Sequence record: OR352934.1
Strand: one strand, 5' to 3'
DNA from: Escherichia phage AV103
DNA length: 39,735 nt
Under the pieces are notes generated by a model, which did no database searches, was not told the origin of the DNA, and was given only the letters and a program-made list of their open reading frames with translations. Position numbers and translations under genes: made by a program. Of the stretch, positions 29,924-32,791 are shown piece by piece (within the stretch, counting starts at the first letter, position 1; every line of letters begins with the position of its first letter).

Positions 29924-30151
29924 TTAAGCATAGCGGTTCACCATAACACAGTCATCAGAATACTCATACTCCTCTACCTTAATAATCAGACTAGGTGTCT
30001 TCTTATAAGCAAACGGTAGGAGGTCACTATCACAATACTCACTGTGTCCTAGCGAGAACATCAACATACCAATGCGCAGCGCCTTGTATGCACGATAAAA
30101 CCTGTGCGCTCTACGCTTCACCGATGCAGCTTGAAGTTCTTCACGCGTCAT
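29924..30151 (-). CDS. Hypothetical small protein, about 75 aa
   Basis: ORF with start overlapping the 3' end of gene 1.7; weak SD; no recognisable motif. Confidence 0.35.
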   Translation of the reverse strand: MTREELQAASVKRRAHRFYRAYKALRIGMLMFSLGHSEYCDSDLLPFAYKKTPSLIIKVEEYEYSDDCVMVNRYA

Positions 30152-30680
30152 AACACTTATCCTTATGTTTCTCGTACAGTTCACCGTAGAACCCAGCTTT
30201 CGCCATGTCTTTCTCTAAGTAAGCCAGTTCGGACTTCTTACCAGCACGTAGGCGGTACTTAAGGATGTTCCCTAAGCAGTACCCTTTGAACTGCTCGCGA
30301 GTCATTGAACGGGCAATCACTTCGATAGCCTCAATGTCGTCGAACAGCATGTAATGGGAAGGCTTAGTGACACCTTCGATTGACTCAGCGGAAGGCTGGT
30401 CGTCTGTAGGAGTTACCTCTGGTTTATCCAGTTTAGGTTTACGCGGGTCCATCGCTCGGATTTCACTTAAGGTAATGTTCTCATCGTTTGTTACAGGGCA
30501 CTCACCACAAGGTACTCCAGCGCAGAACAGGCCGCAGCCAGATGTGTCACCAGTACGACCCTCGTTATTGTCTATCAACTTAATGATAATCTCTTGTTCA
30601 TGTTCGGTCATATTGTTAGCTCCTTTATTACAGGTGTGTGGATAACGGTCGTCTTTCTCTAAGCAAGCTATGCATCCCAT
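30141..30680 (-). CDS. 1.7: Gene 1.7-like protein (nucleotide kinase in T7), 179 aa
   Basis: Cys-rich N-terminus GCIACLEKDDRYPHTCNKG...CGLFCAGVPCGEC and conserved C-terminus KGYCLGNILKYRLRAGKKSELAYLEKD. Confidence 0.8.
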   Translation of the reverse strand: MGCIACLEKDDRYPHTCNKGANNMTEHEQEIIIKLIDNNEGRTGDTSGCGLFCAGVPCGECPVTNDENITLSEIRAMDPRKPKLDKPEVTPTDDQPSAESIEGVTKPSHYMLFDDIEAIEVIARSMTREQFKGYCLGNILKYRLRAGKKSELAYLEKDMAKAGFYGELYEKHKDKCYDA

Positions 30681-31250: not shown

Positions 31251-31284
31251 TATAAACGCAGAAAGGCCCACCCTAAGGTGAGCC
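31251..31284 (-). terminator. Early (host RNAP) terminator TE
   Basis: Reverse complement GGCTCACCTTAGGGTGGGCCTTTCTGCGTTTATA: hairpin plus U-rich tract just after the ligase gene. Confidence 0.8.
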
Positions 31285-31291
31285 AGTGTGA

Positions 31292-32308
31292 TTACATTTT
31301 CTCTTGAGGGTTGTCCTCGGTTCCACGGAACATTACGAACGATGGGTGGCGCAATGAGCCATCGGGTGTTTCCTCCATGTACGCAATCTGACAAGCGTGC
31401 CCGTTGTAGTAGGTTTCACCTTCAATGTTAACTGTGTTGGTAAATTCATCCATTAAGGTGCGAGAGATGTTTGTGGCATTAACTACACGACCACTCTCAA
31501 GAAGCACCTCAAATCCGATTACTTTACCTTCATTCGCTAAACCTTCGGTTCCCCATACAAGACCCTGAATGATACCGTCAGCCTCGTTCTCTGGCTTAAG
31601 TTTCCACCAGCCGGACTTCTTACCGCGCTTATAGATGCACATAGGGTCTTTCACAATGAGACCCTCATGCCCTTCTTCACGCTTCTTCTCATACAGTTGC
31701 TGTAGTTCAACCATGTCGTAAACCTCGTAAGACTCAGCCGCTTGCCATTCGATTTCAGGGAAGTATTCCTGTAGCAGAGGCAGCATGTTCTTAACGTGTT
31801 CCTGCATGAGCAACGTCATGACATCACAGTCTTCTCCAGACTCCACGATGTGAAGCGGGAGGATAGCGTACAGTCGGACACTCAGACGTTTGGTGTCCAA
31901 CTCGAACTCAACCTTGGACCCCTTGAGTGGTGGCACACCGCCAACGTCGAACTCAAAGTTCTTATTGTTGAGCCATTTGGTGCGCAGTAGGCCAGACCCG
32001 GTGTTAAAGTCTACGCCTTTGACCATGAGTTCCCCATCGAGCATAAAGCCATCTTTGTAGAAACAACGGTCATCGCTCAGCAGACGCTTCCAGCGAACAT
32101 CAAACCCGTTTAAGTGCTCCAGCGCCGGAATCGTTTTAGACACACGAGAGAGCCAGCAGCAGTTAGCAGTATTGTCTACGCAGATGTTACCACGCACACC
32201 ATCGTACTTAATGTCAGCAATAAGATACCCAGCGTTATCCAGAGCTTTCTTAATGGCAGACTCCACGAAAGACACGGCTTTGAATGGGTTGGTCTTAATG
32301 TTCATCAT
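31292..32308 (-). CDS. 1.3: ATP-dependent DNA ligase, 338 aa
   Basis: Adenylation motif KYDGVRG near the N-terminus; C-terminal ...DGSLRHPSFVMFRGTEDNPQEKM. Confidence 0.95.
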   Translation of the reverse strand: MMNIKTNPFKAVSFVESAIKKALDNAGYLIADIKYDGVRGNICVDNTANCCWLSRVSKTIPALEHLNGFDVRWKRLLSDDRCFYKDGFMLDGELMVKGVDFNTGSGLLRTKWLNNKNFEFDVGGVPPLKGSKVEFELDTKRLSVRLYAILPLHIVESGEDCDVMTLLMQEHVKNMLPLLQEYFPEIEWQAAESYEVYDMVELQQLYEKKREEGHEGLIVKDPMCIYKRGKKSGWWKLKPENEADGIIQGLVWGTEGLANEGKVIGFEVLLESGRVVNATNISRTLMDEFTNTVNIEGETYYNGHACQIAYMEETPDGSLRHPSFVMFRGTEDNPQEKM

Positions 32309-32327
32309 AGTGTTATCTCCTATTGGT

Positions 32328-32366
32328 TAAATGACTAAGGCCACTCAATGAGCGACCTTAAGCATT
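32328..32366 (-). promoter_or_regulatory. RNase III hairpin (R1.3-like)
   Basis: AAGGCCACTCAATGAGCGACCTTAAG inverted repeat. Confidence 0.5.
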
Positions 32367-32388
32367 GTCCCTATACTGAGTCGTATTA
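32366..32388 (-). promoter_or_regulatory. T7 RNAP promoter (phi1.3)
   Basis: Reverse complement TAATACGACTCAGTATAGGGACA. Confidence 0.85.
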
Positions 32389-32658
32389 CTTCCAGTGCTT
32401 CAAATCACTATGCACCTTGCGTAACCACTCGGTCTGTGCGTTGCAGCGCACATCTTCGTCATCGTGCTCGAACTTATTAGATGTTAACTCTACGCCATTC
32501 CGCAAGACCACTCGAAGAGTCTCTCCAGCTACCCATCGGCGCTGTGCATAGTCCTCACGTCGATAAGTCTCAGCGACCACATCAACATCATGGTCTTCTT
32601 TGAGGCGCTTGATAACATCCTTGTACGCTGCCAGATTGCCACTATACAGACGTCCCAT
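32386..32658 (-). CDS. 1.2: Gene 1.2 protein (host dGTPase inhibitor in T7), 90 aa
   Basis: Internal start MGRLYSGNLAA... as recalled for T7 gp1.2; ATG follows the gene 1.1 stop. Confidence 0.8.
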   Translation of the reverse strand: MGRLYSGNLAAYKDVIKRLKEDHDVDVVAETYRREDYAQRRWVAGETLRVVLRNGVELTSNKFEHDDEDVRCNAQTEWLRKVHSDLKHWK

Positions 32659-32659
32659 C

Positions 32660-32791
32660 TTACTGACCCTCCCAGCAGCGTTTATGCGCACGGGTTCGTA
32701 ATGGCTTATTAAACTTACGACCTTTAGTTACCTCGAAGCTGTCATGAGCGTTACGGTTAGAACGTTTGGCCATCTTTTCGAAGTTACGCAT
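32660..32791 (-). CDS. 1.1: Gene 1.1 basic small protein, 43 aa
   Basis: ATG with SD GAGAGGA; MRNFEKMAKRSNRNAHDSFEVTKGRKFNKPLRTRAHKRCWEGQ. Confidence 0.65.
   Translation of the reverse strand: MRNFEKMAKRSNRNAHDSFEVTKGRKFNKPLRTRAHKRCWEGQ

Follow-up and report, generated by a model that had tools for sequence, protein, structure and literature searches.

Two hypervariable internal segments account for the length difference between the DNA ligases of Escherichia phage AV103 and T7

Introduction

The DNA ligase encoded by T7 gene 1.3 seals nicks as the phage DNA is replicated and recombined, and the phage can do without it if the host has normal ligase. The window analysed here is the whole 39,735-nt sequence of Escherichia phage AV103 (OR352934.1). 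Its ligase open reading frame is 338 aa long, and an earlier note, which gave about 359 aa for T7, attributed the difference to internal deletion of sequence, probably from a surface loop. Is the AV103 ligase a shortened form of the T7 enzyme, or is T7 the unusual member of the family? Both lengths in the earlier note are confirmed by the open reading frame list and by the T7 record, in which gene 1.3 (NC_001604 6475..7554) encodes 359 aa. We therefore asked where the two proteins differ, and which length is usual among their relatives.

Results

The AV103 ligase gene occupies the gene 1.3 position and carries the T7 expression signals

The AV103 genome is of the T7 group (Teseptimavirus-like) and is read on the minus strand, where there are nine matches to the T7-type promoter. 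The ligase matches the T7 DNA ligase chain (PDB 1A0I) with an E-value of 2e-187, in two stretches with a gap between them in the OB domain. The gene and its signals are as follows.

31292..32308, minus strand: ATP-dependent DNA ligase coding sequence, gene 1.3 orthologue, 338 aa plus TAA stop (open reading frame list)
32315..32321, minus strand: Shine-Dalgarno sequence AGGAGAT, 6 to 7 nt 5' of the ATGATG start (read from the sequence)
32366..32388, minus strand: phi1.3 T7-type promoter TAATACGACTCAGTATAGGGACA, upstream of the ligase (pattern match)
31252..31285, minus strand: homologue of the early terminator TE, with the hairpin GGCTCACCTTAGGGTGGGCC and a T-rich tract, directly 3' of the ligase stop

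When the gene and its flanks are aligned with T7 DNA, the Shine-Dalgarno sequence, the ATGATG start and the TAA stop are the same in both phages. The phi1.3 region of AV103 aligns with the annotated phi1.3 promoter region upstream of T7 gene 1.3, and TE differs from the annotated T7 terminator by a single base change, in the hairpin loop. Downstream of TE, AV103 aligns with the start of T7 gene 1.4. The gene order in AV103 (883-aa RNA polymerase, 43-aa open reading frame corresponding to gene 1.1, gene 1.2 open reading frame, phi1.3, ligase, TE, gene 1.4) places the ligase at the syntenic position expected of a T7-group gene 1.3 orthologue, as seen in the alignment with the annotated T7 locus.

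Two observations concern the region upstream. The gene 1.2 open reading frame (32386-32691, minus strand) begins in the open reading frame list at a GTG and is 101 aa long, and its stop codon overlaps the phi1.3 promoter. The real start is likely the ATG at 32658 (MGRLYSGNL..., 90 aa), which sits 1 nt past the gene 1.1 stop codon, a spacing like that in T7; T7 gp1.2 is 85 aa long (258-nt coding sequence). It should also be noted that the stretch separating gene 1.2 from the ligase in AV103 (32309-32385) contains no homing endonuclease. An endonuclease is annotated under or beside the ligase match in Bas104, JeanTinguely, JacobBurckhardt, Yanou and 64795_ec1. The Bas104 endonuclease lies immediately upstream and overlaps the ligase start, and the Bas104 ligase has an altered N-terminus, MIINFKTS.

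The catalytic domains and motifs are intact

Two domains make up the AV103 ligase.

31595..32308, minus strand: nucleotidyltransferase (adenylation) domain, aa 1-238 (PF01068 match at aa 9-238)
31295..31594, minus strand: OB-fold domain, aa 239-338, including motif VI (PF17879 match and AF2 model)

Both Pfam models score well above their cut-offs (114.8 bits against 26.2 for PF01068; 149 bits against 25 for PF17879). The PF17879 match is split in two in AV103, with the break where the extra loop of T7 sits, whereas T7 ligase gives a single contiguous match of 109 positions.

Motif I is KYDG at aa 34-37, with the K34 codon at 32207..32209 (minus strand) aligned to K34 of T7. It is followed by motif III (DGEL, aa 91), motif IIIa (LYAILP, aa 146), motif IV (EGLIVK, aa 215), motif V (WWKLKP, aa 234) and motif VI (LRHPSFVMFRG, aa 319-329). 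The residues K34, D36 and G37 are invariant in 38 relatives, and the catalytic motif columns in general are invariant or nearly so (38 to 43 relatives aligned). The protein therefore has the features of ATP-dependent DNA ligases: a motif I of the form KxDG, motifs III, IIIa, IV and V, and an OB domain with motif VI.

Given a backbone 96% identical to that of T7, intact motifs and conserved expression signals, we predict that the AV103 ligase is almost certainly an active orthologue. From its backbone identity to the characterised T7 enzyme, it would be expected to self-adenylate with ATP and to seal nicks.

The length difference lies at two internal sites of divergent sequence

In the BLASTP alignment of the AV103 and T7 ligases there are 296 identities over 359 positions (82%) and 21 gap positions at two internal sites, so the two proteins are not of equal length. 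One site is a gap of 2 aa near AV103 residue 121, and the other a gap of 19 aa after residue ~300. The N-terminus (MMNIKTNPFK...) and the C-terminus (...RGTEDNPQEKM) are identical in the two proteins, as the earlier note had said of the terminal blocks, and the 21-aa difference is wholly internal. Each gap lies in a hypervariable segment.

31874..31972, minus strand: VR1, aa 113-145, located after motif III and before motif IIIa; 33 aa in AV103, 35 aa in T7
31397..31441, minus strand: VR2, aa 290-304, last part of the OB helix plus the loop before the following strand; 15 aa in AV103, 34 aa in T7

VR2 supplies 19 of the 21 residues of the difference. AV103 lacks the T7 VR2 segment KEATLSQWGFFSPYGIGDNDACTINPYDGW, which in T7 connects the OB helix to the following strand, and has in its place NIEGETYYNGH and a 57-nt gap. 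Nucleotide identity between AV103 and T7 along the gene is as follows.

aa 1-112: 92.9%
VR1, aa 113-145: 50.5%
aa 146-289: 91.7%
VR2, aa 290-304: 42.2% (45 alignable nt, plus the 57-nt gap)
aa 305-338: 91.2%

Just past VR1 there is a run of 90 nt that is 100% identical in the two phages, and outside VR1 and VR2 the proteins are 96.2% identical over 288 columns. Since both indels sit in patches of 42-50% nucleotide identity flanked by 91-93% identity, the alignment points to replacement by divergent alleles at VR1 and VR2 instead of clean excision. The "internal deletion(s)" of the earlier note are internal, but our data do not support their being deletions.

Three simpler causes were considered and rejected. 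Misassignment of the start codon does not apply, as the ATGATG start and the ribosome-binding site are those of T7. Truncation and frameshift are excluded by the alignment of the ends, start and stop with T7. A clean slippage deletion between direct repeats is rejected, since replacement extends to the sequence on either side of the gap.

T7, and not AV103, has the unusual ligase length

We searched about 5.8 billion proteins for homologues of the AV103 ligase, found 1219 relatives at E <= 1e-20, and examined the 120 best-matching cluster representatives, 118 of them full length. Allele counts are given over 120 sequences, namely these 118 together with AV103 and T7.

The median ligase length is 339 aa among the 118 full-length proteins; 97 of them have 345 aa or fewer and 12 have at least 354 aa. 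VR2 has the AV103 length of 15 aa in 84 of the 120 sequences and the T7 length of 34 aa in 7, although short forms may be slightly over-represented since the best 120 relatives are the top matches to a short-allele query. For VR1 the shortest alleles have 30 aa and the longest 48 aa; the AV103 length of 33 aa is the most frequent (47/120), and the T7 length of 35 aa occurs in 23/120. Counted by raw members, the T7-type clusters are big (252 in P0011), which probably reflects the use of T7 in laboratories. As judged from these sequences the AV103 ligase is not short: the 338/339-aa form is the mode and T7 is the outlier, which reverses the polarity implied by the word "shorter" in the earlier note.

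The two VR2 lengths also differ in how widely they occur. Among the relatives listed, the 15-aa VR2 is found on backbones that are 74-97.6% identical to T7, whereas the 34-aa VR2 is found only on backbones that are at least 92.7% identical to it. The short form is also present in T3, which belongs to another genus (Teetrevirus), and in a protein of Klebsiella phage PMBT12. From this distribution the short VR2 is most probably the general, ancestral state and the 34-aa VR2 of T7 a derived loop expansion, with the limit that the ancestral state is not rigorously rootable since the cassettes recombine.

Variation is concentrated at the same two places throughout the family alignment. Column entropy averages 2.03 in VR1 and 1.49 in VR2, a 3- to 4-fold rise over the backbone (0.48 to 0.62). 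Insertions relative to the AV103 ligase fall after residues 125-131 or 293-298; elsewhere there are only N-terminal extensions and two single-residue cases. The closest metagenome-derived clusters among those listed are 338 aa long and 98% and 96% identical to the AV103 ligase.

VR1 and VR2 alleles occur in many combinations

The alleles at the two sites are not tied to each other. The T7-type VR1 (TDTKNQEFHE...) is paired with VR2 segments of 15, 20 and 34 aa. The AV103-type VR1 (LN.KNFEFDVGGVPPLKGSKVEF...), which is also found in SYGE1 and Bas104, is paired with two distinct 15-aa VR2 types and with VR2 segments of 20 and 23 aa. A third VR1 (LNKKNMQFD...) is paired with both 15-aa and 34-aa VR2. 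The exact AV103 VR2 peptide, TNTVNIEGETYYNGH, is common to four clusters among those listed, including that of Kluyvera phage Kvp1, whose ligase has 340 aa. Free pairing of this kind on related backbones is what would be expected from homologous recombination through the conserved backbone. Because the alleles combine in so many ways on closely related backbones, ligase length is a poor lineage marker, and the suggestion that the AV103 length marks a lineage in a minor way is weak.

The sequences of individual alleles give some indication of how their lengths change. P0073, a relative from the ENA with a 354-aa ligase, has a tandem duplication of 15 aa in VR1 (GGVPPLKGSKVDFCL / GGVPPLKGSKIDFRL), so in-frame duplication is one route of length change at this site. 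In VR2, most of the longer alleles listed (20 to 46 aa) are unrelated in the middle and share the end pattern NP(Y/F)xG(W/H/Y), while the 15-aa alleles end in (Y/F)Y(N/D/T)G(W/H/Y/F). These end patterns suggest repeated independent insertions at one loop position, upstream of the entry to a conserved strand. A literature search for prior accounts of loop variability in Teseptimavirus ligases found nothing relevant.

Structure models place VR2 in a helix-to-strand connection of the OB domain

We used AF2 models of the AV103 ligase and of a T7-type ligase (P0018, 358 aa) to examine both sites. The models are of moderate confidence (mean pLDDT 68.3 for AV103 and 69.7 for P0018) and were used for the order of secondary structure around VR1 and VR2, not for fine geometry. 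The best PDB match to the AV103 model is 1A0I (Foldseek, E = 1e-44), and other minimal and larger ATP-dependent ligases come next.

In the AV103 model the OB domain has strands at residues 244-252, 263-270, 275-278, 304-309 and 323-330, and a helix at 283-296. VR2 covers the end of this helix and the 7-residue loop that leads to the strand at 304-309. In the T7-type model the helix runs from 284 to 302 and is followed by a 22-residue coil with pLDDT of about 57 to 63; the T7-specific VR2 residues are modelled as a helix extension and a low-confidence coil. VR1, with the 2-aa site, is mostly coil in the AV103 model, and its pLDDT in the AF2 models is 85 to 91. The assignment to a surface loop in the earlier note agrees with the predicted position of the 19-aa site in the OB helix-to-strand connection and of the 2-aa site in a mostly coil region.

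In apo T7 DNA ligase, the adenylation domain and the OB domain each contain one unstructured loop of 9 residues (PMC6144786). The structure library holds 332 residues for 1A0I against a chain sequence of 348 residues, a shortfall that would fit some 16 to 18 residues left unmodelled. A literature search for the residue coordinates of the disordered loops in 1A0I found none. VR1 and VR2 may coincide with these two disordered, putatively DNA-binding loops. It is conceivable, though decidedly unlikely, that they do and that they are under diversifying selection. If so, the loops could tune binding to DNA or a partner, or evade a host factor that targets phage ligase, and the 15-aa and 34-aa forms of VR2 would differ in function.

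Discussion

Possible origins of the length difference

Taken as a whole, the AV103 ligase gene is very probably an intact, functional T7-group gene 1.3 orthologue that is shorter than its T7 counterpart by way of two hypervariable segments, the T7 VR2 being the expanded one. The other account closest to the earlier note is a true lineage-specific deletion, in which an ancestor with a ligase of T7 length (359 aa) lost 6 nt and 57 nt from the two loops. A backbone that is 96% identical to T7 outside VR1 and VR2 does make a recent common backbone ancestor plausible, and both gaps are in frame. However, deletion does not explain why the residues beside the gaps are also replaced (42-50% nucleotide identity, against 91-93% outside), nor why the AV103 VR2 peptide recurs unchanged in other clusters, that of Kvp1 included. 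The 15-aa length extends to T3 and to relatives with as little as 74% backbone identity, and the 34-aa allele is limited to near relatives of T7; a deletion in the AV103 lineage is accordingly highly improbable. An assembly error or a decaying gene can be dismissed almost entirely. The frame is single and uninterrupted with all catalytic motifs kept, and 338-aa ligases are found in the independent genomes of SYGE1 (1017-nt coding sequence) and vB_YenP_WX1 (match over all 338 residues), as well as in the two metagenome-derived 338-aa clusters at 96% and 98% identity.

A different kind of alternative is that the loops are targets of diversifying selection, through DNA contact, host defence or partner recognition, and that their length reflects functional specialisation and not neutral drift. 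The concentration of variation in two segments of an otherwise conserved enzyme (entropy of 2.03 and 1.49 against about 0.5) and the many discrete, unrelated, in-frame alleles that reassort would be compatible with such selection, as would the shortfall of 1A0I in the structure library (332 of 348 residues). Surface loops under relaxed constraint, combined with recombination between diverged lineages, nevertheless account for the same pattern, and AF2 models VR1 with fairly high confidence. We regard selection for loop function as unlikely.

The reading we prefer, two reassorting hypervariable segments in an intact ligase, can be put as a sequence of proposed steps. The gene 1.3 product of AV103 is a minimal two-domain (nucleotidyltransferase and OB) ATP-dependent DNA ligase of a T7-group podovirus, and its gene, just upstream of TE, would be transcribed from phi1.3. 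By analogy with the T7 enzyme, it would adenylate itself on Lys34 and pass the AMP to the 5'-phosphate at a nick, which would then be sealed. Ligases of the T7 group appear to contain two hypervariable, length-polymorphic surface segments, VR1 and VR2, and the phages would carry different, anciently diverged alleles of each, probably swapped by homologous recombination through the conserved backbone. At each site AV103 has the most frequent length (33 aa for VR1 and 15 aa for VR2), and T7 combines a 35-aa VR1 with a rare 34-aa VR2, most probably a derived expansion confined to its closest relatives.

Consequences for annotation and engineering

Since 338-aa ligases are present in GenBank phages, a short-loop T7-group ligase is already known; it is indeed the norm. 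What these comparisons correct is a reference bias: neither the 359-aa ligase of T7 nor the Pfam OB model that fits T7 contiguously is typical. Ligases of 335-345 aa in T7-like phages should not be flagged as shortened or deleted during annotation. A modest point of use in enzyme engineering is that two loop positions accommodate 4 to 31 inserted residues in this family. VR1 and VR2 also illustrate mosaic recombination inside a gene in the Autographiviridae, and it is of some interest that nearly all length variation of the family falls in two loops of a minimal ligase, which reassort as cassettes.

Comparison with known systems

Several observations on the wider AV103 genome bear on its relatives. 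In the half of AV103 from 20 to 39.7 kb, matches to the best of these (Bas104, JeanTinguely and SYGE1) extend over only about 87-89% of the sequence, at 93-94% identity, so the genome is a mosaic without a near-identical deposited counterpart. Comparison of the first and last 600 nt of the 39,735-nt sequence revealed no shared repeat, so the terminal repeats are not both present in it. The open reading frame at the gene 1.7 position (30141-30680, minus strand) encodes 179 aa, compared to 196 aa for the T7 nucleotide kinase (591-nt coding sequence), and is as long as the annotated nucleotide kinase of Bas104 (540 nt). By position this difference from T7 appears to be N-terminal, and T7 again has the longer form.

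Among deposited records, no match is identical to the AV103 ligase gene, and the best nucleotide identity is 93.1%. The ligases of Yersinia phages vB_YenP_WX1 and WX2 and of Cedecea phage Yanou are 96.4-96.7% identical to that of AV103 over all or nearly all 338 residues. The ligase of Escherichia phage vB_EcoP_SYGE1 (annotated 1017-nt coding sequence, 93.8% protein identity) has the AV103-type VR1 but a different 15-aa VR2 allele, TANVKEHGDDYYNGW. T3 ligase (346 aa, Teetrevirus) matches that of AV103 in the 15-aa length of VR2 and in domain organisation, but its VR1 is 8 residues longer and it is only about 75% identical.

More distant minimal ligases, those of Chlorella virus and the Lig E group, share the nucleotidyltransferase and OB core without an extra DNA-binding domain (PMC6212786, PMC6144786). 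Minimal enzymes are among the structural matches to AV103 (2Q2T, 1FVI and 4D05), with only 16-18% identity. The Chlorella virus enzyme has a latch hairpin, which lies elsewhere in the OB domain than the variable loop of AV103 and T7 (PMC6144786).

The closest characterised system remains T7 gp1.3 (1A0I). Its gene, like that of AV103, is flanked by gene 1.2 and TE/gene 1.4 and shares the promoter, ribosome-binding site, start and stop, and the protein has the same nucleotidyltransferase and OB architecture with catalytic motifs that are identical or conservatively changed. It differs in carrying another VR1 allele (35 aa against 33 aa) and, at VR2 (34 aa against 15 aa), an extended OB helix and a long coil before the next strand.
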